From: Candidatus Caldarchaeum sp.
Lineage (GTDB): Archaea; Thermoproteota; Nitrososphaeria_A; Caldarchaeales; Caldarchaeaceae
Direction of reading: 5' to 3'
DNA: 64,000 nucleotides
Assembly (NCBI GenBank): GCA_038831915.1
Contig: JAWBKB010000002.1
Coordinates: 4,964 to 68,963 of the forward strand
Shown: positions 1,342 through 13,228 of the stretch, in pieces
Position numbering within the stretch: position 1 is the stretch's first letter
Layout: each line of letters starts with the position of its first letter
Position numbers and translations under genes: made by a program
Notes under the pieces: model-generated
Seen by the model: the letters and a program-made list of their open reading frames with translations, nothing else
What the model was told of the DNA's origin: nothing
Database searches by the model: none

Positions 1342-1953
1342 TTGAATAGGCTGCCGCCTGGGCAGGTGTGGGCGAGAAACTGGGTCATATACTCGGCTCT
1401 AGGAACACCAACAATAGATATTAATGCATACCGGCTGAGAGTGGATGGACTTGTAGAAAACGAAGCCGAATACACTTATCAGCAGCTGCTCGAAATGGCT
1501 GATGTCGAATACGTCAGGCCTTTTCACTGCGTGACTAAGTGGAGCATCGATAACGTGAAATGGAAAGGTGTGAGTTTGAAGCGTTTGCTGATGCTTTCGA
1601 AACCGAAGAATGAGGCGAAATGGGTGATGTTCGGCTGCCTTGACGGATATACGGCGCCTGTGCCGATTGAAGACGCTATGAGCGAAGACGCCATAGTCGT
1701 GTTGGAGATTAATGCTAAACCGTTGAACATAGAGCAGGGTTTTCCCGCCAGGCCTTTCATTCCACATCTCTACGGTTGGAAAAGCGCGAAATGGCTATCC
1801 GAAATAACACTCATCCCTTCTTACAGCGACGGATACTGGGAGCTGTATGGCTACCATGAAAGAGGCAACGTCTGGGATGAGGAGCGGTTCAAAGGCATGG
1901 GCGGCAAACACGTCAAGAGAAAAGCTTGGGGCATCATTCCAGGGGGAACTTGA
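1342..1953 (+). CDS. Sulfite-oxidase-like molybdopterin-binding oxidoreductase domain protein (YedY/MsrP-like)
   Basis: 203-aa ORF. ...YVRPFHCVTKWSIDNVKWKGVSLKRLL...GYTAPVPIEDA...LNIEQGFPARPFIPHLYGWKSAKW... is typical of the oxidoreductase molybdopterin-binding domain. Confidence 0.7.
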   Translation: MNRLPPGQVWARNWVIYSALGTPTIDINAYRLRVDGLVENEAEYTYQQLLEMADVEYVRPFHCVTKWSIDNVKWKGVSLKRLLMLSKPKNEAKWVMFGCLDGYTAPVPIEDAMSEDAIVVLEINAKPLNIEQGFPARPFIPHLYGWKSAKWLSEITLIPSYSDGYWELYGYHERGNVWDEERFKGMGGKHVKRKAWGIIPGGT

Positions 1954-2476
1954 CGAACTTAGGCCAATCGCTGCGGGCCGAGCCAACGTACAACACCGGC
2001 TTATAGCCGCGAAATTCCCAATATTCACCGAAATCTTCAATCGCCACTGCGTCCTCAACGATAGAAAGGAAAAGAAAATGGTCTCCCACATCAATCTTCA
2101 TCTCTACCCTACATTCAAGATATGCAGAAGCGTCGAGTAGTATCGGTGCTTTGGTTTTTTCCCCCAGTCTATATTGGAAACCGCTTGATGATAGCTTGTC
2201 TTTGACGCCTGGCGCAGTGGGCTGGGCCAGCAAAGCCATTTTTGAAACATGCTCGTATGATAGCCAGTTTACGGAGAAAACATTTGAATGCTCGACGAGT
2301 TTTGTGGTTTTGTGAGCTTTGCCGAGAGCGGCTGCTATTTTGGGGGGGTTGAAAGATACAGGCATTACGCTCGATGCGAGTAATCCACCAGCTTCGTCCC
2401 CCATCCGTGAAGCAACAACCATCGCAATCTGCGGATAAAAAAGTCTATGAAACAGTTCAAATGGAATTCTCTTCAC
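1934..2476 (-). CDS. Flavin reductase-like (FMN-binding split-barrel) domain protein
   Basis: 180-aa ORF with a flavin-reductase-like signature (VVASRMGD...VNWLSYEH...AYLECRVE...). Start overlaps the upstream HAD gene by 4 bp (operon member). Confidence 0.6.
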   Translation of the reverse strand: MKRIPFELFHRLFYPQIAMVVASRMGDEAGGLLASSVMPVSFNPPKIAAALGKAHKTTKLVEHSNVFSVNWLSYEHVSKMALLAQPTAPGVKDKLSSSGFQYRLGEKTKAPILLDASAYLECRVEMKIDVGDHFLFLSIVEDAVAIEDFGEYWEFRGYKPVLYVGSARSDWPKFVKFPLE

Positions 2477-3030
2477 ACCGACCCACCTATTTTCAACAAC
2501 GATTGATAAACATCGTCTAATGAATTAACTCTGATGATGTTGGGTGAATTTGGAACTATGCGGTTCCAGGGCTGGTCATAGAGAAATAGCAGCCGCCGTG
2601 TTGCCGCCAACTTTTCAGCGAGTCGTGGTGAATCATCTATGTAGACGTCGTAGGCGAAGCTCGCTTTACTTGCGCGGAGCGGAACCCACACAAAACGACG
2701 GTAACGTACGCCAACATGTTTGAGCCAAGCCTTAACATAGTCTATCGTCTCGGCGGGCCTTTGCGTCAGAATATCGACTTGACCGAAGAGGCTTAGCTTT
2801 TCAGTGTCCTCGCTCAAATCATCCTCTAACGGAGCCATTTCGTACCACCGCTCCCAAGCCAAGATAATCAACTGCATAAACTGTTGCCGCGTCATGTTCA
2901 GCTTCAGCCAAAATTCCCATTCGGTAATCATGTCCCGGGTCAGCTTCAACCCTGTCTGTTCTTCGTAGATTTTGATGATGTTTCCCGCGAGATCCGCCAA
3001 CACTCCGTCTACGTCCAGAGCGATTTTCAA
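2473..3030 (-). CDS. HAD-superfamily 5'(3')-deoxyribonucleotidase-like (NT5C family) hydrolase
   Basis: 185-aa ORF starting MKIALDVDGVLADL (HAD motif I DxDGVL). Size and later motifs (YIDDSP) fit the NT5C-type nucleotidase family. 4-bp overlap with the helicase stop. Confidence 0.6.
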   Translation of the reverse strand: MKIALDVDGVLADLAGNIIKIYEEQTGLKLTRDMITEWEFWLKLNMTRQQFMQLIILAWERWYEMAPLEDDLSEDTEKLSLFGQVDILTQRPAETIDYVKAWLKHVGVRYRRFVWVPLRASKASFAYDVYIDDSPRLAEKLAATRRLLFLYDQPWNRIVPNSPNIIRVNSLDDVYQSLLKIGGSV

Positions 3031-6000
3031 CCCTGTCCCTGACCCATTTTCTCAGCTACGAGATAGGCCGTGTAGATGTTGCGAACATCGTCTCTAAGGT
3101 AGGATTCGAGAAGAGCGGTGAATCTTTCAGGTTTTGAACGGATGAATTTGACGCTGGGCTTCCTCCGCTTCTCCAACTCGGTTCGGGTGAACAGGTCAGA
3201 CGCCCAGACATCCCGCCGCAGCCCCAAAGCAGACTCAAACACTTCCAAAGGGATTTCGACATTCATTTTTTCGGACAGAAGTTTCTTTACGTCCGGTGCT
3301 TTACCGCCTTGCTCGAGACCCTTCAGGAAAGCTTTAACCGCCTCGAGCCCCGCGGTTGTCAATGTTTTGTACAAAAGGTCGAAATCGTATACGACTATTT
3401 TGAAGCCTTTATCGACGAGCTTAGAGATTTCAACGAGGGCCTGCGAAACATCATCAGCCGGCCTGTTGAATTCGAAAAACCCTGTGAACATTTTTGACTC
3501 CTCGCCGTCGAAAAGCGCTAGCCCGTAGAGGCCGGCGTTTAAATCTTCCCGGAACTGAACCGAAACAGCGGACAGAGACGCGAGACCAATAGCTTTCGAA
3601 GGCTTCGTGACCGTGTAAACTGTGTCGCCTATCTGCACCTTCAACGTCTGCATTAATAGTATGTAATCGATGATTTTGAGAGCGTATGTTCGCGCTATTT
3701 CCCAGTCGAGCTTTTTGGCGAGAAAATCGCTGTACACCTGTTCTTCGATTTGCTGCAGAAGAACTTCGTCGAGTTCATCGGGCTGATAGTTTTCGACGTC
3801 TTTCCGCAGGCTTTGCCAGTCGATTGATGGGAGATAGTTTGCGCATTCGCCTTCGTAAAACCTAACGAATTTTCTTTCGCCTAAGACTATCATGTCGAAC
3901 TTCATGATGAAAAGCGAAATGTGATGAATTCTTCTCAGCACGATGAGGATGAAGCTGGCACCGAGACGTAGAAGGCTTGTGTCGTCGAGCGGAGAAGCTT
4001 CGACCGCGAGTCCGTAAGTGTAGTCGCTGTAGAAGCCGTAGGTCGGTGTGGGAACTTCGATGGTTTTCACGTCTTTGATGGCGAAAGTTCTTTCACCAAC
4101 CGTCAACAGCCTGCGTTTGTTCGAATATATTCGCCATTCGACCCTGTTTGCGAATTCGATGAATGTCCCGAATCCGTTGGAAGGAAGCTGTGCTACCAAA
4201 TGGATTAGCGATTGAATGCTTCCTCGGTGAAAATCACGTCTGACATTCGGCTCCTCGTTCCAGCGCAGCTTCGTTCTTTCGTATTCCTCTAGAACAGGGT
4301 TCAGGGCATCGTGTCTTCTCAACCTGCTTTCGAGCAGACTATCGACAACCACGCCTGTGACAACACGGCCTTTTTTCCCTCCTGTTCGGACTTCGACGAC
4401 GACTCCGTCGCTGCTTGGGTCAATGGCTCCGGGCTGAAACTTTTCAACCAAATCGACATGGGAGATGTCTTCGAGGTTTCGTAGGCTGCCGTCGTCTCCA
4501 ACCCGCCAACGCTTGATGCCGTAGGGTGGGGCGAATTCATAAAAATTCATCTTAAGCCAAGCATTCTTACCGTTTTGCGTTAGAGCACCGTCGCTTTCAA
4601 GCCCAAGCTCGCGAAGAAACAAAATATCTTCTTTGGTTATCTTGCTTCGGGTGATTGGGGACACATAATCGAATAGTGTTTTGAAAAGCTTGCCATATTT
4701 GTTTGCTCGGTTCGCGATTGTTTTCTCAATCGGTAGTTCAAGCCATTTTTTGAAAACTTCCACACCTCTGCTTAGTAAATCCCTGTCCCACTGGCTGAAG
4801 GGAATTACCACGGTTTCGGTCCACGGAATATCAGGCCTACGACCCTTCCTCCCCTCCCTCTGTCGAAACTCTCGAACTTCCTGAGGTAATCCAAGGTGAA
4901 CAATTCTCCTGACTGCACCTATGTCAATGCCCTGACTCAAAGTCTTCGGTGTAAAAATCAACTTGGTTTGCCCAATTTTGGCCGATTGCTCAATTTCTCT
5001 TCGCTGCGTCTTGAGCAAGAGATGATGATGAGTGGCGACAGCGGTGTTCAGGCCTGTTTGATGTATCACTTTTCGGGCTGTTTCTTCGGCGGAAGAAATT
5101 CCAACGGTGAAAACCAGAGTCAAAACATCGTCATCAGCGTAGTGTGAAAGAACTTCCACCGGGTCGCCGAAATAGTCGGGGAATTCTGCTCCAGCGGCTT
5201 TAGCAACTTCGACGATTTTGAAGAAATTTCGGCGAAAATCATCGAAATCTTGGATACTTTTTATCACGTCGGGCCCTGCACCCGCTTTGACCAGTTTTTC
5301 TTTCTGAGCTAAAATGGCCTCCCAAATTTTTCGAAGAGATTTGCCTAAGACAAGGTAAGTTCTGTTCTCGGTTTGGAAGGGTTCGCCGTCGACGATGCTG
5401 GATTTCCTCCCGTTGATCTCGGTCAACATCAATCCCACTTCTTCCGGGTCTTGAAGCGTCGCCGTCATGATGACCATTTGGACATTTGGATTGATGATTT
5501 CAACGATGATTCGCATCATCGCCATCAATATCGCTATCGAACGGGGCCCGTAGAAGTCGAATTCGTCCAGAACTATGAGTTGTGTTTCGTTGATAAACTC
5601 CTTGAGGAAAGCGGTCTTGCCTGCGCCAATACGTTTCAGTTCGTTAAGTAGATAGGCTGGGTTCGTTATCACAAGGTTCGAATCTTTAATGGTGGAACGA
5701 AGTGTGCGAGGTGTTGAAGTTTTCAGAATTTCCTCTTTTCTCAGCGCGTCTATTGCTATGACTTTCATGCTGAGAGCTGCACAATAATCTTTCAGACGTT
5801 CAAGCTGGTCGTTTGAAAGAGCGAGTGTGGGATATATCGCGAGTGTATTAGCCCGTTTGAGGGCTGTGTATAGAAACCATGCTTCGGTTTTTCCGCTTCC
5901 CGTGCCGGCTTTCAACACGAGGTTTTCTCCGTTCATCAAAGCTTCCAAACTCTTTCTCTGATGAAGGTAAAGCCTGTTTTCCGCGAGTCTTCTGCATCGA

Positions 6001-6134
6001 GGAATTTCTGATTGTTTCAGCGCAGGCAAAAGGTCGGAGAATTTCTCTTCAACTAGCGGCGGTGAAACCCTTGGGGACACCAGCTTGATAAAATCGTAAC
6101 CAAGTCTGTGAAGCAGTTGTTCCGAATCAATCAT
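3027..6134 (-). CDS. SF2 DEAD/DEAH-box (Ski2/Lhr-like) helicase with a ~550-aa uncharacterized C-terminal region
   Basis: 1035-aa ORF. Motif I LKAGTGSGKTEAW, Ia IYPTLALSNDQLERL, II VLDEFDFYG, III MTATLQ, VI QREGRKGRR. No recognizable domain is visible in the C-terminal half. Confidence 0.8.
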   Translation of the reverse strand: MIDSEQLLHRLGYDFIKLVSPRVSPPLVEEKFSDLLPALKQSEIPRCRRLAENRLYLHQRKSLEALMNGENLVLKAGTGSGKTEAWFLYTALKRANTLAIYPTLALSNDQLERLKDYCAALSMKVIAIDALRKEEILKTSTPRTLRSTIKDSNLVITNPAYLLNELKRIGAGKTAFLKEFINETQLIVLDEFDFYGPRSIAILMAMMRIIVEIINPNVQMVIMTATLQDPEEVGLMLTEINGRKSSIVDGEPFQTENRTYLVLGKSLRKIWEAILAQKEKLVKAGAGPDVIKSIQDFDDFRRNFFKIVEVAKAAGAEFPDYFGDPVEVLSHYADDDVLTLVFTVGISSAEETARKVIHQTGLNTAVATHHHLLLKTQRREIEQSAKIGQTKLIFTPKTLSQGIDIGAVRRIVHLGLPQEVREFRQREGRKGRRPDIPWTETVVIPFSQWDRDLLSRGVEVFKKWLELPIEKTIANRANKYGKLFKTLFDYVSPITRSKITKEDILFLRELGLESDGALTQNGKNAWLKMNFYEFAPPYGIKRWRVGDDGSLRNLEDISHVDLVEKFQPGAIDPSSDGVVVEVRTGGKKGRVVTGVVVDSLLESRLRRHDALNPVLEEYERTKLRWNEEPNVRRDFHRGSIQSLIHLVAQLPSNGFGTFIEFANRVEWRIYSNKRRLLTVGERTFAIKDVKTIEVPTPTYGFYSDYTYGLAVEASPLDDTSLLRLGASFILIVLRRIHHISLFIMKFDMIVLGERKFVRFYEGECANYLPSIDWQSLRKDVENYQPDELDEVLLQQIEEQVYSDFLAKKLDWEIARTYALKIIDYILLMQTLKVQIGDTVYTVTKPSKAIGLASLSAVSVQFREDLNAGLYGLALFDGEESKMFTGFFEFNRPADDVSQALVEISKLVDKGFKIVVYDFDLLYKTLTTAGLEAVKAFLKGLEQGGKAPDVKKLLSEKMNVEIPLEVFESALGLRRDVWASDLFTRTELEKRRKPSVKFIRSKPERFTALLESYLRDDVRNIYTAYLVAEKMGQGQG

Positions 6135-6140
6135 CGCATT

Positions 6141-6599
6141 CTACCTGCTCTGCTCAAAGCTGTTGCGAACTTGACTTATGACGTCTTCGCCGTATCCAAG
6201 CCTTTTGAGCCCTTTAACCATGAGAGCGAAGTATTCGCTTGACGGCACAATTTTTTGACGCGGATTCGTCCCGACGTAAACATATGCTTCAACTGAGGTT
6301 TGGTCGGTTTCCACCATGACTTTGCGTCTGTGATATAGGTGCGGAACTCCTTCATAGCGGTCGAGTTTCTCGAGTTGCTCCTCATCGAGAAGATAGAGAG
6401 CGCCATAAACGATGGATTGGGGGTCTTCGACGATGTTTGCGACACCGCCGCGCCAGGAAGTCGAATAGACGTTGAAGACAAGCCTAAATCCTTTAAGCTT
6501 GGCCGGACGAAGGTCGTGCCACTGGCCGACCCTCTTCTTCATCCCGTCGACGTCGAGGTTGGAGCCATATGCAAAATACCAGACAGGCATCGAAGCCAC
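6141..6599 (-). CDS. Gamma-glutamylcyclotransferase-like (AIG2/GGCT family) protein
   Basis: 152-aa ORF. N-terminal WYFAYGSNLDVDGMKKR matches the YxYGSNL signature of AIG2/GGCT-fold enzymes. 6-bp gap to the helicase start. Confidence 0.7.
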   Translation of the reverse strand: MASMPVWYFAYGSNLDVDGMKKRVGQWHDLRPAKLKGFRLVFNVYSTSWRGGVANIVEDPQSIVYGALYLLDEEQLEKLDRYEGVPHLYHRRKVMVETDQTSVEAYVYVGTNPRQKIVPSSEYFALMVKGLKRLGYGEDVISQVRNSFEQSR

Positions 6600-7913
6600 C
6601 TAGAGAATGAAGTATTCTTTGTCGACTTTTCGATTCTCTACACCGAGGATTGAAGAATCGAATTTAACACCTCCGTGGAGAACTGCGTATGGTTTGTCGA
6701 ATAAGACCGCTTCGGCGATCCTCCCGACCGCGTCTGATTTCATCACGCCGCTTCCGCTCGCCCCGGTTACAACTAAGCAGTTGAGAAACTTGAAAACAAT
6801 CGGGTTGCCGTCTAAGTAGTTCATCGAGTAGTTGCCCGCCCACATCGCGGAAGGCCGCGTGTTCACGAACTGTGGGAAATACTTCACTAAAGGCGGATAG
6901 ACGTTTTCGTAGAAGAAAGATGGCTCGGGCTCGTTTTCGAGCCCGAATTTCCGGCCAATTTCATCCGTTAAACTGACCCAGAACGCTTTATCACTTCTAC
7001 GTGGAACTACGTAGAGACCGTTGGGGAAAAACATCATTGGTAGAGGCCGTCCATTGTCCCAGCCCGACATTAAGAATTTTTCCAATTCGCCAGAAGTTTG
7101 AATTACGAAAAGCTGGCGTTTCTTCGGTTTCACAAAGCAGTCGACCCCGATAGGGTCGAGGAGCTGAGGAGACCACGACCCTGCCGCTACAACCACCATC
7201 TCCGCCTGCAGATATTCCCCATTAACTTTGACACCGCCAACCTTGATTTTCTGCCATGCCCGCGGCTCGTTCGGGATACCCAGCGGCTGAACGGGTTCTA
7301 GAACGAGCTGTTCAACACGCTTATTCAACAATAACTCAACCCCTTCCGAAACACATCTCCGCCTGTAGAGGTTCACCACTTTCTCAACATCTAAGAAACC
7401 ACATCTGGGAGTGAAAAACCCGTAAACAATGTTTTCAATTCCCAAAAGCTGTGCTTCTTCGTCGCCGTCGAACCGGGTGACGACGCCAAGCTGTTTCTCA
7501 AGCTCTTCGCCGCGTAGTAAAACCGCCTTCCCCTGTTCAACGAAATCTTGAACTGCCCGTACGGTTTTCGAATAGCGGTTTTGGTCCATCAATATCATGT
7601 AGCCGACTTCCTGCATGGAAAGCTTGGCTTCGCCTGATTGTTCTGCTTCGCGGAGATGCTGAATGGTTGTTTCGGCGAGAATTCTGTTTACATGGGACGT
7701 GAAGATGCCTTGACGATATCCGCCGACGCTCCGAGCAGTGTTTCCCTGTCCAACATCCTTCTCCATTTCAAGAATCGCGACCGATAAATCGCGGTGGTTG
7801 AGCTTGATGTAATAAGCGGATGCGAGGCCTAGTATGCCGCCTCCGACGACGATAACGTCGAAATCAGCCACAGAACTCCTTAGAGATGAGTAGTTAAAAA
7901 AAGCTTTCATCAC
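6600..7913 (-). CDS. FAD-dependent oxidoreductase (DAO/glycine-oxidase-like family)
   Basis: 437-aa ORF. N-terminal Rossmann dinucleotide-binding motif DVIVVGGGILGLASAYY, size and organisation of DAO-family flavoproteins. Its stop abuts the GGCT start. Confidence 0.75.
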   Translation of the reverse strand: MMKAFFNYSSLRSSVADFDVIVVGGGILGLASAYYIKLNHRDLSVAILEMEKDVGQGNTARSVGGYRQGIFTSHVNRILAETTIQHLREAEQSGEAKLSMQEVGYMILMDQNRYSKTVRAVQDFVEQGKAVLLRGEELEKQLGVVTRFDGDEEAQLLGIENIVYGFFTPRCGFLDVEKVVNLYRRRCVSEGVELLLNKRVEQLVLEPVQPLGIPNEPRAWQKIKVGGVKVNGEYLQAEMVVVAAGSWSPQLLDPIGVDCFVKPKKRQLFVIQTSGELEKFLMSGWDNGRPLPMMFFPNGLYVVPRRSDKAFWVSLTDEIGRKFGLENEPEPSFFYENVYPPLVKYFPQFVNTRPSAMWAGNYSMNYLDGNPIVFKFLNCLVVTGASGSGVMKSDAVGRIAEAVLFDKPYAVLHGGVKFDSSILGVENRKVDKEYFIL

Positions 7914-7947: not shown

Positions 7948-9027
7948 TTGCTCGTTGTCAACAGCTATGCCGTGGAGGTAGACGAGGCGATACAAAGGCT
8001 TAGAGAGCAGAACGCAAGCAAAATACTTATTCAGTCACCCCTAGGCCTCCGCTCGGTCGCCTACAAGGTCGGCGAGATACTGCGCAACCATGGCTTCGAG
8101 GTGATTTTTTCATCGTCGAACTGCTGGGGAGGATGCGACGTGGCCTACCCCGAAGCGATGCAGGTTAACGTGGACACCATAATTCACATTGGTCACAGCA
8201 GATTTCTCCGCAGAGACATCATGCCAACGATTTACCTAGAATGCAGATACGCCGACCCCTCACCCATCATATCCATTGCGGACAAAATAGCAAATGAGCT
8301 CGAAAAATTCGAAATCGTCGGATTAGCAGCAAGTGTTCAGTGGCTCGACTATCTCTCAACAATAACGGAGCTACTACGTGAACGGGGAATAAAATCGTTA
8401 ACCGAAAAACCAGATATGTATTCAGTTTATGAAGGGCAGGTTCTCGGATGTGATGTTTCCGCGATGAAAAAAATAGAGGAGAATGTTGACGCGTATTTGG
8501 TCTTGGGAAGTGTTTTTCACGGACTTGGTTTAGCTGTTTCTACTTTAAAGCCGGTATATGCGGCTGATCCTCACATCCAAAAAGTAACGAACCTCGAGCA
8601 TCAACGCGAGAAATTATTACGACAGCGATTCGCTCAAATAGCAGCATTCAAGAAAGCTTCGAAAATCGGAGTACTGGTCAGCATTAAACTAGGTCAGAAA
8701 AGAATGGGCCTCGCTAAATATCTTGCCAAACTGTTAAACAGCCATGAGAAGGAGGCTTTCGTCGCAACCGCCGACGAAATCAACCCGAATACCATCTCGG
8801 AAAACAGGTTCGAAGGGTTTGTCAACACGGCTTGTCCCCGTCTCAGCCTCGAAGACCAGCTACAGTTCAGCAAACCTGTTCTACTACCCGTTGAAACATT
8901 AGTAGCGCTGGGTCTTTTGGACTGGGTTGAAGTGGTAGAGAAAGGTTTTCTCATGTATCCGTGGGGTTGGCATTCAAAGGAAATTGGTGGGAAAATATGG
9001 AAACAAGTAGTCCAGCTCAAAATCTGA
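7948..9027 (+). CDS. dph2: Diphthamide synthase Dph2 (2-(3-amino-3-carboxypropyl)histidine synthase)
   Basis: 359-aa ORF. ILIQSPLGLR, IIHIGHSRF, QVLGCDVS, GVLVSIKLGQ, TACPRLSLED align with conserved blocks of archaeal Dph2. Confidence 0.8.
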   Translation: MLVVNSYAVEVDEAIQRLREQNASKILIQSPLGLRSVAYKVGEILRNHGFEVIFSSSNCWGGCDVAYPEAMQVNVDTIIHIGHSRFLRRDIMPTIYLECRYADPSPIISIADKIANELEKFEIVGLAASVQWLDYLSTITELLRERGIKSLTEKPDMYSVYEGQVLGCDVSAMKKIEENVDAYLVLGSVFHGLGLAVSTLKPVYAADPHIQKVTNLEHQREKLLRQRFAQIAAFKKASKIGVLVSIKLGQKRMGLAKYLAKLLNSHEKEAFVATADEINPNTISENRFEGFVNTACPRLSLEDQLQFSKPVLLPVETLVALGLLDWVEVVEKGFLMYPWGWHSKEIGGKIWKQVVQLKI

Positions 9028-9596
9028 GGAAAAGATCAGTTGTTCCCGGCGAAGTGCTTGCCGTAGTGGAGGAATTCGTTCCGGCTGAAGGCGTTTTCAC
9101 AGACGAATTGGGTCGGCTGAAGAGCCGGTGGCTGGGCGAAGCGTTCTTCGACTTGAAAGCCAAGGAAGTGAAAGTTCAGCCAGCAAAATCAATAGTCGCA
9201 ATCAATCCTAGAGACCGAGTAGTGGCCGAAGTCAAAGATGTTCAGGAAAGAATAGCGATTGCGGAAGCATTCATCAAGCTGCCCAACATTCCACTAAAGT
9301 ATAGGAGAACTGGTGTAATCCTGGGCCGGAAGAACGACTCTCTCGAAAACATTATCGGAATTGGTGACATCGCTCTTCTAAATGTCGTCAACATCTTCAG
9401 GGGAATGGTGACGTTCGATATATATTCGCCGGGATGTGGTGTAATGTTGGCGATGTGCAGCGTATGCGGCAGTGTTCTCGAAAAGAAAGAGAATTTATTG
9501 GTCTGCGGCAAATGCGGGAACAGAGAGAGGCGAAAGACAGTGTTAAAATACGGCAACATGGAATTGCTAAAACAGTTGGCTGGTGTGGAAAAATGA
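8997..9596 (+). CDS. csl4: Exosome complex RNA-binding subunit Csl4 (S1 domain plus C-terminal Zn ribbon)
   Basis: Start METSSPAQ... chosen inside the longer ORF that begins at 8961. VVPGEVLAVVEEFVPAEG N-domain, central S1-like region, C-terminal CSVCGSVL...CGKCGN zinc ribbon. Confidence 0.7.
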   Translation: METSSPAQNLRKRSVVPGEVLAVVEEFVPAEGVFTDELGRLKSRWLGEAFFDLKAKEVKVQPAKSIVAINPRDRVVAEVKDVQERIAIAEAFIKLPNIPLKYRRTGVILGRKNDSLENIIGIGDIALLNVVNIFRGMVTFDIYSPGCGVMLAMCSVCGSVLEKKENLLVCGKCGNRERRKTVLKYGNMELLKQLAGVEK

Positions 9597-9871
9597 AAAT
9601 GAAAATCATCGAGGAAACGCAGGACTTCATGAGTATTGAGGTAGTTGACGAAGATCAGTCGATAATCAATTTGTTCGCCGAAACCCTTAACAACGTTGAC
9701 GGAGTGCTGTACGCCGGATATCGTGTTGAACATCCCTTGACAGGAAAAATGACAATTTCGATCAAGGTTGACCCGTCGAATACATCTCCGAGAAAAGCAC
9801 TGCAGCAAGGGTTACAGGAGATTCGTCGTCTAGTAGAAGCAATAGACCAGAAATTAGATGTGTTGAGGTGA
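9593..9871 (+). CDS. rpoL: DNA-directed RNA polymerase subunit L (Rpo11)
   Basis: MKMKIIEETQDFMSIEVVDEDQSIINLFAETLNNVDGVLYAGYRVEHPLTGKMTISIKV is typical of RpoL. The ATG overlaps the Csl4 stop (ATGA). Confidence 0.75.
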   Translation: MKMKIIEETQDFMSIEVVDEDQSIINLFAETLNNVDGVLYAGYRVEHPLTGKMTISIKVDPSNTSPRKALQQGLQEIRRLVEAIDQKLDVLR

Positions 9872-9876
9872 TTTGA

Positions 9877-10209
9877 ATGGAGTTTTGCCCTGAATGTGGA
9901 ACCGCCTTGAAGCCGATGAAATCTGGCTCAAAAGTTGTTCTTGGATGTAAGAAATGTGGTTACAAAAAACCTTTAGAGGGTGAGAAAGTGATTGTCAAGC
10001 AGGAGAGAGCTGCCGCGGTGGGTAAAAATGTGGCCGCGATAGTCGAATCCGAAGAAGCACCATTACCCACCACGTCGGACGTCATATGTCCCGCTTGCGG
10101 ACACAACGAAGCAAAATGGTGGACCGTTCAAACGAGGTCAGCGGACGAGCCTATGACACAGTTCTTCAGATGTGTAAAATGCGGTCACACATGGCGTGAA
10201 TACGCCTAA
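9877..10209 (+). CDS. tfs: Transcription factor S (TFS) / RNA polymerase subunit M
   Basis: 110 aa. N-terminal zinc ribbon MEFCPECGTAL...CKKCGY and C-terminal TFIIS-type ribbon CPACGH...RCVKCGHTW with acidic hairpin RSADEP. Confidence 0.85.
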   Translation: MEFCPECGTALKPMKSGSKVVLGCKKCGYKKPLEGEKVIVKQERAAAVGKNVAAIVESEEAPLPTTSDVICPACGHNEAKWWTVQTRSADEPMTQFFRCVKCGHTWREYA

Positions 10210-10913
10210 AAATGCGCAAAGCTCACCAACTTACCGAACTGATAAGGTTTAACTGATTTTAGAAATTCTTTCGAAGCCGCAACCGCAACAATACCCACGA
10301 AATCACCTTTGAATTCACTAATCTTTCCGAGCACCTCCTTAACAGGTACATATTCATCGAGAATGCCCACAGTCAGAAGCAAGTGGCTTCTCAAGACATC
10401 AACCGGAACATAAATTCTTGAAATCACCCTTGACCCCGCGTTGCGGAATTTTATTTCTTCCCATTTTCCTGTCGATGAAGTTTCGGTGTTTGACATGTAG
10501 TAAACCCGCTTCGTGGTTGAAAGCCCGAATGCGGTCGCCAGAATCAAGCCGGCTCGGTCGTAGGCAAGAATGCAGTCAATGCGGCTGCCTGCAAATTCAC
10601 GCAACATTTGAGCGGCCATGAGCTCAACCAAATAGCTTTCCGACACAACGTTCGACACATCGAGTCCATCAGAATCGGCGTGCAGCCGTTGCTGCACCAT
10701 ATGGTAAACGTTAACGATTTTCAATAACTTGTCCACAAGATCGAGCGTTCTTTTGCCGCGTGGCAATGTTTTGTTAGTTACGTATCTGGTTAGCGTCGAA
10801 ACTGGCAGCCCGGTGTGGTGGGAAAGTGTTTTGTAGTCCATAGTGTTTTTTAGAGTTTTGAGAATGTTAACAGCTAGGTAAGATGTGTAAGCATCAATTT
10901 TTTTTGTCAACAC
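10206..10913 (-). CDS. HTH plus phosphoribosyltransferase-domain transcriptional regulator (GfcR/PurR-like)
   Basis: 235 aa. N-terminal wHTH (DYKTLSHHTGLPVSTLTRYV) followed by a type-I PRTase fold motif (ILAYDRAGLILATAFG). Confidence 0.5.
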   Translation of the reverse strand: MLTKKIDAYTSYLAVNILKTLKNTMDYKTLSHHTGLPVSTLTRYVTNKTLPRGKRTLDLVDKLLKIVNVYHMVQQRLHADSDGLDVSNVVSESYLVELMAAQMLREFAGSRIDCILAYDRAGLILATAFGLSTTKRVYYMSNTETSSTGKWEEIKFRNAGSRVISRIYVPVDVLRSHLLLTVGILDEYVPVKEVLGKISEFKGDFVGIVAVAASKEFLKSVKPYQFGKLVSFAHF

Positions 10914-10991
10914 GTGCCAGGCGAGTTTTGCAACTTATAGGATTTTGTTTTCGAAAAAATTCGCGTAATACTGCGGTAAGCGACTAGCATG

Positions 10992-11007
10992 AAAGTTTTA
11001 AATAAAC
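10992..11007 (+). promoter_or_regulatory. Putative TATA box for the XDH large subunit (likely leaderless transcript)
   Basis: aaagttttaaataaac about 25 bp upstream of the ATG at 11021. Confidence 0.3.
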
Positions 11008-11020
11008 TTCACCACAATAC

Positions 11021-13228
11021 TTGTCGTTGGTTGCGAAAAAAATTTACGACGCCTATGATTCCGTTAGAGGCAGACCAATCTACACGGCTGACATAGTTCA
11101 AGCTACAGCCCTACGCGTGAAAGCCCTCCGCTCCGAATATCCTCATGCTTTGATAAGGAGAGTTGATGTTTCAGCGGCGGTAAACACGCCGGGAGTTGCC
11201 GCGGTGCTTACGGCCGGAGACATTCCAGGTCAGAACATTACTGGCGCGGTGGTTCTTGACAGGCCTCTCCTCGCAACGGGCAAAGTGAGGAGCCTCGCAG
11301 ACGCAATCGCGTTGGTCGTGGCCGATGACGAAGAAACAGCTGACAAAGCTTTGGAAAAAATCGTCGTCGAATACGAGCCGCTCGAACCAGTTTACGACCC
11401 TGTCAAAGCACTGGAACCAGACGCGCCAAAGGTTCATGAAGACGGAAACCTTCTTCGTCACTACAAGCTAAGGAAAGGAGATGTTTCAAAGGGATTCATT
11501 GAATCTGACGTTATAGTGGAGGAGGAGTTTAGAACCCAGATGCAGGAACCAGCTCCGATCGAGACAGAAGCAGCCTACTGCATGCCGGAGAAAGACGGAA
11601 GCCTAACTATTTACGGAAGCATCCAAAATCCCTTCTACGTTTTAACTGGTGTCGCGAGGATTCTCGGTTTGCCGAAGGAGAAAATCAACCTCGTGGCGAT
11701 GGCGATTGGAGGTACGTTCGGAGGAAAGTCGGATGAAGCCCCATGGGATGTTTGTGCGATGGCTGGCCTCGCGGCTTTGAAAACCGGTAAGCCAGCAGCC
11801 TGCATATATGGCCGCGACGAATCGATGATGGCTCATTCACATCGACATCCCGCCGTTATGAAGTACCGTTTGGGCGCGACCTATGACGGCGTCCTGAAGG
11901 CTATTGACGCCGACCTATACCTTGACACAGGGGCTTACGCTTCGGTAGGTCCTCTTGTGATGATGAGAGCGATAACCCATGCAGCAGGGCCTTACGTAAT
12001 CGAAAACGTCCGAATCGACAGCTACCTCGTTTACACAAACAACTTCACCGCGGGGTCTATGCGAGGGTTCGGATGTCCGCAAACTCATTTCGCAGTCGAA
12101 TCACTTATCGACATTTTAGCTCGGCGGCTTGGAATGGACCCCATCGAACTCCGCATGAAGAACATTTGGCGGAAAGGTGTTGTGACGGCGAGTGACGTCT
12201 TTTTGGAAGACAACCCCATCTACGAAGTTCTCGTCGAAAAGGTGAAGGAAAAGCTTGGATGGAACCGTAGAGTCAAAAAGCCATATGAAGGCTACGGCAT
12301 CGCGTTTGTGTTTCACGGCAATAGCCTCGGGCCCGAAGGAGAGGACAAAGCAGTGGCCACCGTGAAAATAACCGCCAAAGGAGAAGTTCACGTGATGACG
12401 TCTCTCACAGAATACGGAACCGGTTCTACGCGAGGCTTCGCGAAAATAGCGGCAGAAGCCCTCGGAGTTCCGGAAAAGCTTGTGACGATTGATTTGGTCG
12501 AAACGAAGAAAGTACCAGATTCGGGTGGAACCTTCGCATCTCGCTCAACTTTGATGGGTGGTAACGCCATTCTTCAAGCCGCAACTAAGCTAAGAGAGAA
12601 GCTGGGGATGAACGCCCGAGAGGCAGGCATAAACCTCGCCACGATGAACGTCGTGGATTTTGTGAAGGATGTTTTGAAGGAGGATGTGACGGAAACCGCT
12701 GAATTCAAGCTGCCGCTTTGCGACTACGACCACGAGACAGGGAAAGGCCGGCCCTATCTCCAATACACATATGGAGTGGTCGGGGTAAAAGTTTCGGTAG
12801 ACAAGGAGCTTGGAATCGTTCGGCTGAACAGGCTTGTCGCTGCTTTCGACGTAGGTCGAGTAATCAACAAGCCCTATCTTCTCGCTCAAATTGAAGGCGG
12901 TTTAACTCAGGGAGTGGCATATGGCCTTCTCGAGGAGTTCATCATCGGCAAAAAGCATAAAGCACTTAACCCCAACCTCGCCGATTATCTCGTTCCTACA
13001 AGCGCCGACCTGCCGCGCATAGAGATTGAAGTTGTTGAAAACCCCAGCCCATTAACACCGCTTGGCACACGAACCGCAGGCGAACCCGGCATCAACGGCC
13101 CCGCGCCAGCAATAGCCAACGCGGTGTTCGACGCTATAGGAGTTCGGATAACTTCGCTACCGATAACAGCGGAAAAAATCTACAAAGCCTTGCATGAAAG
13201 AGAGGCTATCGTCGTTGAGACGCGATGA
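11021..13228 (+). CDS. Xanthine dehydrogenase / aldehyde oxidase family molybdopterin-binding large subunit
   Basis: 735 aa. Organisation and motifs of the XDH/CoxL family (GGTFGGK, GxGxYAS, EPGING near the C-terminus). Confidence 0.85.
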   Translation: MSLVAKKIYDAYDSVRGRPIYTADIVQATALRVKALRSEYPHALIRRVDVSAAVNTPGVAAVLTAGDIPGQNITGAVVLDRPLLATGKVRSLADAIALVVADDEETADKALEKIVVEYEPLEPVYDPVKALEPDAPKVHEDGNLLRHYKLRKGDVSKGFIESDVIVEEEFRTQMQEPAPIETEAAYCMPEKDGSLTIYGSIQNPFYVLTGVARILGLPKEKINLVAMAIGGTFGGKSDEAPWDVCAMAGLAALKTGKPAACIYGRDESMMAHSHRHPAVMKYRLGATYDGVLKAIDADLYLDTGAYASVGPLVMMRAITHAAGPYVIENVRIDSYLVYTNNFTAGSMRGFGCPQTHFAVESLIDILARRLGMDPIELRMKNIWRKGVVTASDVFLEDNPIYEVLVEKVKEKLGWNRRVKKPYEGYGIAFVFHGNSLGPEGEDKAVATVKITAKGEVHVMTSLTEYGTGSTRGFAKIAAEALGVPEKLVTIDLVETKKVPDSGGTFASRSTLMGGNAILQAATKLREKLGMNAREAGINLATMNVVDFVKDVLKEDVTETAEFKLPLCDYDHETGKGRPYLQYTYGVVGVKVSVDKELGIVRLNRLVAAFDVGRVINKPYLLAQIEGGLTQGVAYGLLEEFIIGKKHKALNPNLADYLVPTSADLPRIEIEVVENPSPLTPLGTRTAGEPGINGPAPAIANAVFDAIGVRITSLPITAEKIYKALHEREAIVVETR

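Follow-up and report, generated by a model that had tools for sequence, protein, structure and literature searches.

A 64,000-nucleotide stretch of DNA from Candidatus Caldarchaeum sp. (GCA_038831915.1, JAWBKB010000002.1 positions 4,964-68,963, forward strand; hereafter the window) contains a complete helicase gene at 3027..6134 (-), an uninterrupted open reading frame (ORF) of 1035 amino acids and a stop codon. We propose that the encoded protein, a superfamily 2 (SF2) helicase, is a cysteine-less, Thermoproteota-specific variant of the YprA/MrfA type with a probably inactive exonuclease-like tail, and not a new class of system. It is regarded as a new variant because its core and its fold appear to belong to YprA/MrfA while the Pfam domain PF09369 and the four-cysteine site (Cys4) of these helicases could not be found in it. 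On balance we favour the view that it represents a Thermoproteota-specific branch of the YprA/MrfA helicases (COG1205, 'DUF1998') and is a translocase of the DNA repair type, working 3'-5', with an MrfB-like appendage that has degenerated. The original prediction for this DNA concerned window 3027-4700, corresponding to helicase residues ~479-1035, and saw there one large uncharacterized domain that probably carries the specificity or effector function of the operon.

Residues 1-449 (window 4788..6134, -) comprise an N-terminal region, RecA1, a helical insertion of ~65 residues and RecA2, with all SF2 motifs intact (GTGSGKT 77-83, PTLALSNDQ 102-110, DEFD 190-193, MTAT 223-226 and QREGRKGRR 425-433). 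The Pfam scan of the helicase returned DEAD (58-231) and Helicase_C (338-432) and nothing else, and all matches from NCBIfam and PADLOC end by ~residue 460. Using the single sequence as phmmer query against the PDB, MrfA (6znp) ranked first with 6.9e-11. With the full-length family profile in hmmsearch the same entry reached 1.3e-27, followed by the next one at 3.9e-17 and by weaker matches to Hel308 (1.9e-14) and Lhr (2.6e-13). The nearest proteins outside the family in a core-only search of 5.8 billion sequences were canonical DUF1998 helicases (P0161 with E=1.6e-21, also P0163 and P0167), in all three of which PF09369 was confirmed, so that they serve as positive controls. Their hhalign comparison with the family gave a probability of 100% and E=1.3e-39 over 371 columns, covering residues 35-480. 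This alignment reaches the first helix of the winged-helix (WH) domain, and a P-E...N motif at the RecA2/WH junction is common to the family and the DUF1998 helicases. It is gapped at residues 264-330, where the ~65 residues are inserted between RecA1 and RecA2. The insertion (window 5145-5345, -) is probably helical, conserved in the family and absent from canonical DUF1998 helicases; at the equivalent position defence-type YprA helicases carry a BrxA-like insertion (bioRxiv 2025.09.15.676423). By eye, residues 4-19 (SEQLLHRLG-YDFIKLV) resemble MrfA in that a short strand seems to come after an amphipathic helix, a likeness of sequence pattern only; in YprA/MrfA helicases this strand joins the RecA2 sheet. 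Judged by these comparisons, the SF2 core is closest to YprA/MrfA and not to other SF2 families.

The part following RecA2 was compared with MrfA by fold. In MrfA the domains are arranged as N-terminal region (1-39), RecA1 (40-250), RecA2 (251-423), WH (424-490), OB (491-556), CON (557-630) and MZB (631-749), with CON, placed between OB and MZB, built as an elongated sheet of antiparallel strands and with the zinc site of MZB made of four Cys in a coil between two helices (PMC7797055). We built an AlphaFold2 model of residues 450-1035 on a 15-sequence alignment (A2), which showed a mean predicted local distance difference test score (pLDDT) of 87.0 and a predicted template modelling score (pTM) of 0.70; domain boundaries and the locations of conserved patches were taken from predicted secondary structure and topology rules. 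When this model was compared to the PDB with Foldseek, the sole match with E<1e-3 was MrfA (6znp_A, E=1.7e-5, prob 1.00, 386 columns), and the predicted elements after RecA2 agree in order and size with WH-OB-CON-MZB of MrfA.

Residues ~450-530 (4545..4787, -) are modelled as a helical/winged-helix domain with the succession H-H-H-hairpin-H and the near-invariant residues E470 and N478, and would be the equivalent of the MrfA WH domain; a weak match to WH3_Lhr was obtained for 1 of the 15 aligned members (E=0.013). They are followed by residues ~531-611 (4302..4544, -), a linker (NFYEF..P.G.KR) and a small predicted beta-barrel (~540-605; strands 91-96, 102-108, 128-136 and 142-150 in model numbering) as OB equivalent, in which D561, E564, Q567 and D572 are near-invariant. 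The putative CON equivalent, residues ~612-718 (3981..4301, -), starts with two helices and continues with very long antiparallel beta-strands (~640-713; model numbering 191-200, 204-230, 233-245 and 252-264), and Y618, D634, F655 and W667 are invariant in it. For residues ~719-829 (3648..3980, -) the model shows a helix, a beta-hairpin and a helical bundle, which together with their position equivalent to MrfA MZB 631-749 suggest an MZB/DUF1998-like domain; within boundaries assigned in this way, a conserved P785-D-E-L-D turn is found where the Cys coil would lie. Residues ~450-829, the ~380 residues after RecA2, may thus be read as the WH-OB-CON-MZB canopy of MrfA/YprA, at the level of the fold only.

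Several results weigh against this assignment. The TM-scores of the model to MrfA are only 0.16-0.20, which we ascribe to length normalisation and to the domain orientation of a mobile multi-domain module, but which are still a caveat. A four-Cys zinc site is missing from the window protein, as the whole helicase has three Cys (C47, C118 and C764) with C764 alone in the MZB-like domain, and the family alignment has no conserved Cys. Neither the window protein nor the 15 C-terminal sequences of A2 nor 54 (8 + 46) further representatives gave a match to PF09369. The distant members P0079-P0128 were checked for PF09369 or an MZB Cys4 cluster that would bridge to canonical YprA, and none was seen. 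When 1.84 billion proteins were searched exhaustively with an HMMER profile, no DUF1998 protein and no bridge came up either, and hhalign of the C-terminal half with the three DUF1998 helicases was null (prob 0.07%). As PF09369 and Cys4 are absent and hhalign is null, the canopy assignment rests on predicted structure and positional logic.

Sequence searches with the C-terminal half gave nothing else either. Residues 450-1035 have no match in Pfam or NCBIfam, the C-terminal 586 residues alone have 0 matches in PADLOC, and neither phmmer with the protein nor hmmsearch with a profile built from the family's C-terminal half found anything significant in the PDB beyond the core. With regard to Lhr domain 4 and the Hel308 ratchet/HLH, no Pfam accessory domain was detected and neither Lhr nor Hel308 is among the 50 best fold matches, while the NCBIfam models for both match the core only, far below their cut-offs. 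A reading as PD-(D/E)xK or HNH nuclease was rejected, as the conserved G752..K755..E761 belongs to the beta-hairpin of the MZB-like part, for which no match to a nuclease fold was obtained. The original prediction had placed all SF2 motifs in the N-terminal part, had seen no assignable motif and no DUF1998-type Cys cluster in the rest and had noted no Hel308 domain 4/5 pattern, and in all of this it agrees with our data (motifs within residues 77-433). Its single large uncharacterized domain does not hold for residues ~450-829, about two thirds of the region, whereas an extra domain is indeed present in the last ~205 residues. It had also allowed that the region might turn out to be a standard helicase extension of the Lhr or Hel308 type; this is true in kind, but at fold level the extension is that of the MrfA/YprA family. 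Of the distant folds it had suggested looking for, a winged-helix-like unit is predicted at ~450-530, and a nuclease-type fold (RNase H/DEDD) is suggested for the tail, with catalytic residues that are not conserved.

This tail, residues ~830-1035 (3030..3647, -), is predicted to contain a beta-hairpin, a PKPS motif (P845, S846), an RNase H-like/DEDD-exonuclease-like alpha/beta domain and a helical tail, its elements being a hairpin, a three-strand meander, a helix, a strand and further helices. Modelled alone it reached a pLDDT of 90.2 and a pTM of 0.87. Foldseek against the PDB gave weak matches to RNase HI (E 6e-3 to 5e-2, prob 0.8-0.9, TM 0.2-0.3) and to NurA. In BFVD we found an 'RNase_H superfamily protein' (E=2.9e-3, prob 0.96, 232 columns), family-B DNA polymerases (TM 0.45-0.48, 211-222 columns), several exonucleases and a YprB-like protein of phage LKA1 (TM 0.45, 219 columns). 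These weak but consistent matches point to a fold of the RNase H/YprB-like/PolB exonuclease class. From ~61 members scanned for PF13482, the domain of YprB, only P0011 showed a match (E=0.0023-0.01, below the 22-bit cut-off), in which profile position 14 is aligned to the start of the second strand; the ~61 include 46 additional members, none of which matched. Comparison of the tail domain with LKA1 ORF34, for which PF13482 was confirmed, was not significant in hhalign (E=0.43, or E=0.26 against its 20-sequence profile). The best local alignments, non-significant as they are, lie in the structurally expected register for all three exonuclease motifs, with L-D-I-E-T against L-S855-A-V857-S (ExoI), N-G..F-D against D917-F-D919 (ExoII) and Y-N-x-x-D-V against Y1012-L-R-D-D1016-V (ExoIII).

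Of the 109 family members, 42 have D, 21 have S and 20 have A at position 855. Position 857 holds an aliphatic residue, with an acid in one member only, and position 917 is D in 54 members and G in 26. Acids at both ExoI positions occur in 1/109 members and the full DEDD set in none of them (0/109), and for this reason the tail domain is probably catalytically inactive. Its best conserved residues are instead D876 (98/109), G877 (108/109) and E878 (88/109), and D/N908 and F911 are well conserved too. From the PF13482 register and the RNase H-like topology we infer that these residues belong to the turn between beta2 and beta3 and to the alpha1-beta4 junction, and that the canonical active site is at the other end of the sheet. 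That the 'FDGE' motif might itself be ExoI D-x-E does not agree with the PF13482 register and the beta-meander topology and was rejected, but it is kept as a rival below.

To describe the family as a whole, residues 450-1035 were used in a word-indexed search of 5.8 billion proteins, which gave 19 clusters, all from Caldarchaeum, Nitrososphaerota or Conexivisphaera and with full-length members of mostly 1000-1026 residues. The exhaustive HMMER profile search, covering 1.84 billion representatives, returned 109 clusters, all of them the family itself, and nearly all full-length members show the same layout of a helicase core and a C-terminal region starting at ~residue 450. Orthologues that span the full length have 1000-1050 residues and occur in Thermoproteota. 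In a GTDB scan with one genome per species, relatives were present in 211 species, the best 80 of which all belong to Thermoproteota (Caldarchaeales, Wolframiiraptor, Geocrenenecus, Nitrososphaeria, Bathyarchaeia, Methanomethylicia, Nezhaarchaeales, Thermofilaceae and Korarchaeia). The closest relative of the window helicase, from a Caldarchaeum metagenome-assembled genome, shares 75% identity. As the C-terminal half keeps 35-75% identity to its relatives, with ~50 invariant residues in the first alignments, it must be real coding sequence under selection. The most conserved positions in 109 sequences are found between residues 440 and 830, among them E470, N478, Q567, D572, Y618, D634, F655, W667 and E761. 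In public databases the family is labelled 'DEAD/DEAH box helicase' and nothing more.

Short-form relatives of ~705-740 residues from Sulfolobales and Desulfurococcales align to residues 1-824 of the window protein and then stop (E=9e-71), and the last domain is therefore a separable unit that was either gained or lost. The corresponding sister group (~705-775 residues) includes P0153 (Saccharolobus shibatae WP_218257841.1), P0169 (Metallosphaera hakonensis AWR98402.1), P0141-P0152, P0082 and P0075, from Sulfolobales, Desulfurococcales and others, and has the core and the WH-OB-CON-MZB-like part without the exonuclease-like tail. We had considered whether its Sulfolobales members are the published 'aLhr3' group (PMC8301817), which was rejected, as aLhr3 of M. 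hakonensis is AWR99945.1 and the match found here is AWR98402.1. Some members carry additional modules: P0108 (1274 residues) has N-terminal ankyrin repeats, P0047 (1330 residues) and P0059 (1302 residues) have N-terminal extensions of ~350-400 residues with no Pfam match, and a DUF294 nucleotidyltransferase domain is present in 1 of 46 scanned members. Two distant relatives of ~1110-1134 residues have four Cys within ~25 residues (P0079 residues 763-788 and P0085 residues 772-796). These lie inside the canopy-aligned part (profile 7-321) and away from the MZB position, and may be an inserted zinc module as in defence-type YprA helicases.

In the window the helicase gene is part of a string of five co-directional, tightly packed genes (1934-7913, -), with two junctions being 4-bp overlaps and one a 6-bp gap. 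A FAD-dependent oxidoreductase (DAO, 6600-7913, -) and a GGACT (gamma-glutamyl cyclotransferase-like, 6141-6599, -) are encoded upstream, and an NT5C-type 5'(3')-deoxyribonucleotidase (2473-3030, -), which in Caldarchaeales is encoded by a gene overlapping that of the helicase at the 3' end of the latter, and a flavin reductase (1934-2476, -) complete the string. The order oxidoreductase-GGACT-helicase-NT5C-flavin reductase recurs only in Caldarchaeales-type genomes, where the helicase-NT5C and GGACT-helicase pairs are conserved in ~14-15 loci. A conserved operon partner was sought by clustering all ORFs of 87 loci, with only lineage-specific synteny as the outcome: no partner is universal or present in more than 16 of the 87 loci, the most frequent being RtcB (adjacent in 16), NT5C (15) and GGACT (14). 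The idea that the C-terminal half is the effector of an operon is therefore unsupported, as the local gene string is specific for Caldarchaeales.

The gene for RtcB adjoins that for the helicase in several lineages, either downstream on the same strand or convergent with overlapping ends (L003 9086-10582, L004 9065-10513, L033 7917-9374, L032 6246-9146 and 12 other loci). The L032 ORF with the RtcB match is, at ~966 residues, about double the normal length of RtcB. In one Thermoproteota lineage the genes for NurA-HerA-Mre11-Rad50 and a small HSP20 gene lie directly upstream of the helicase gene on the same strand in 8 loci (L001/L002 1-5995; also L067, L073, L074, L080, L081 and L084), which suggests a link to double-strand-break end resection. 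Helicase neighbours in all lineages sampled are housekeeping or metabolic genes, and no defence genes (methyltransferase, PLD, BrxHII or similar) were seen among them. Conserved operons with partners of this sort or with NERD mark the defence-type YprA systems DISARM, Dpd, Druantia, ARMADA, BRIGADE and TALON. Further neighbours in the window are Dph2 diphthamide synthase (7948-9027), an ORF with a weak exosome Rrp4/Csl4 N-terminal match (8961-9596), RNA polymerase subunit L (9434-9871) and a molybdopterin aldehyde/xanthine-oxidase-type large subunit (11021-13228). With archaeal housekeeping genes across window 7948-13228, a chromosomal location outside of any island fits.

Since inactivity of the tail was judged at the canonical positions only, the protein could also be an active helicase-nuclease, with a re-wired site (e.g. 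D876/E878 with E863, D917/D919 and D948) that would let a single chain do the work of MrfA and MrfB, unwinding and degrading the damaged strand. D876-G-E878 is after all a D-x-E that ends a hydrophobic strand and is better conserved than anything else in the domain, E863 (82% acidic) and D948 (84% acidic) could join it in a non-canonical site, which counts against our interpretation, and the window protein keeps the ExoII-like D917/D919 and the ExoIII-like Y1012-x3-D1016. Fusions of MrfB to YprA helicases exist (bioRxiv 2025.09.15.676423), and the overlap of a deoxynucleotidase gene with the helicase gene in Caldarchaeales would fit as well. However, the DGE turn is placed opposite the canonical site, the canonical ExoI pair is replaced by S855/V857 in the window protein, a third of the members have Gly or Ser for D917, and true catalytic residues would be expected to be near-invariant, like the helicase motifs, so that we regard a working nuclease as unlikely. 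A related reading, to which we give even less credence, takes the D876-G-E878 hairpin with D/N908, E863 and D948 as a non-canonical metal/nucleic-acid site carried by a scaffold similar to RNase H. In that case the protein would be an undescribed single-chain helicase-nuclease and, throughout Thermoproteota, the main counterpart of crosslink and fork repair of the bacterial MrfAB/eukaryotic Hrq1 type, and it would do without the zinc site that is regarded as essential in MrfA.

The adjacency to RtcB hints at an RNA substrate and in this respect also speaks against a DNA repair enzyme. Together with the RNase HI fold matches and with Dph2, the exosome-subunit-like ORF and RNA polymerase subunit L in the window neighbourhood, it could mean that the helicase takes part in RNA processing or RNA repair, acting with the RtcB ligase on RNA, or on RNA:DNA hybrids through its RNase H-like domain. 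Yet the characterised relatives MrfA and SftH are 3'-5' DNA helicases, RtcB is not adjacent in ~80% of the loci including the window and is often convergent, which excludes an operon there, the RNase H catalytic residues are not conserved, and another lineage ties the gene to Mre11-Rad50-HerA-NurA; an RNA role thus seems improbable, slightly more so than the non-canonical site. The least probable is that an archaeal antiviral system, so far unrecognised, uses the helicase as its YprA-like motor and the C-terminal half as sensor or effector. In many branches of the YprA family the helicase is the motor of a defence system and carries a C-terminal nuclease domain, be it active or dead (bioRxiv 2025.09.15.676423), and the best PADLOC core matches are SngC, BrxHI/HII, Cas3 and DruE, but these matches are limited to the generic core, the neighbours are of the housekeeping or metabolic kind described above, and the distribution tracks the Thermoproteota lineages, which fits vertical inheritance better than a mobile island.

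For the YprA/MrfA-type translocase that we favour, a mechanism can be proposed. Following the biochemistry of MrfA and SftH, the helicase would load on single-stranded DNA and translocate 3'->5', DNA as substrate and the 3'-5' polarity being predictions by analogy. In line with the 'skipping-rope' model, the tracking strand would be enclosed by the WH-OB linker and the WH-OB-CON-MZB canopy, with the MZB drum held together without zinc by the P785-D-E-L-D turn and its helices. The tail domain could be what is left of a 3'-5' exonuclease of the MrfB/YprB type that was fused in cis, which is now non-catalytic and may grip the DNA end or the displaced strand or dock a partner. In the cell this would result in a housekeeping function in nucleic-acid repair or processing, probably DNA repair, and not in defence.

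In summary, a ~1000-residue helicase conserved across Thermoproteota lineages has been given a fold-level identity and a testable mechanism, while neither a new effector nor a new type of system is revealed. If our assignment is correct, a MrfA-type canopy can persist without the zinc cluster and without the Pfam signature that define the YprA/MrfA family, and surveys based on COG1205/PF09369 may therefore undercount this family in archaea. It would also be an archaeal instance of a helicase with a decayed exonuclease module, in parallel to MrfA and MrfB. This is useful for annotation and for learning which parts MrfA-type helicases can spare, and the short-form relatives in the genetically tractable Sulfolobales offer a direct route to the function.

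Compared to known systems, the Ski2-like helicases Lhr and Hel308 share with the window helicase the SF2 DExH core and a winged-helix domain after RecA2, but their domain 4/ratchet was not detected in it by Pfam or fold search and MrfA is ahead of them by >10 orders of magnitude in the profile search. A survey of ~52,000 YprA homologues has described the OB-CON-DUF1998 'canopy', active as well as inactivated C-terminal nuclease domains in several branches, and a repair branch in which the helicase is associated with MrfB or fused to it (bioRxiv 2025.09.15.676423). Among the helicases treated there, the YprA-like Dpd helicases (DpdJ-type) have wholly lost the DUF1998 Cys4 and kept the canopy, and thus provide a precedent within the YprA family for a cysteine-less member. 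They differ in their 7-deazaguanine DNA-modification defence context, in other insertions and in an ALBA-like C-terminus, and NCBIfam DpdJ, DpdF and DpdE match the window helicase weakly and in the core only. The TALON YprA homologues resemble our family in the C-terminal fusion to a predicted inactive RNase H-fold domain, but they have ARMADA-like zinc modules and come from a defence operon that is rare and bacterial (Chloroflexota) and that also encodes NERD nuclease, TPR-CSD and TBP as partners. None of these partners was seen at the archaeal helicase loci, and the window protein has no CxxC modules. As the TALON fusion was called unique among YprA homologues (Bell et al., bioRxiv 2025.09.15.676423), the archaeal case appears to be undescribed there.

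The 3'-5' exonuclease MrfB/YprB (PF13482 RNase_H_2, DEDD class) is encoded beside or fused with YprA helicases. The archaeal tail is like it in being C-terminal to a YprA-type helicase, in its predicted RNase H-like alpha/beta topology with a helical tail, in the whole-domain Foldseek matches to YprB-like and PolB exonucleases (TM 0.45-0.48) and in the one marginal PF13482 member. It differs in the replaced ExoI D-x-E, the absence of a full DEDD set throughout the family, the profile-profile value of E=0.26, the lack of a TPR region and a best conserved motif, DGE, that is off the canonical site. MrfA/YprA from B. subtilis (6ZNP/6ZNQ/6ZNS; COG1205; DUF1998/MZB helicases including SftH from M. 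smegmatis) is the closest solved structure, for the core by sequence and for the part after it by fold. Set against it, the family has neither PF09369 nor the four-Cys site, a canopy invisible to HMMER and hhalign, the ~65-residue insertion between RecA1 and RecA2, the extra C-terminal domain of ~205 residues and a restriction to Thermoproteota. What both have in common is the order RecA1-RecA2-WH-OB-CON-MZB, as far as the model predicts it, the P-E...N motif and, in sequence, the helix-strand pattern at the N-terminus.

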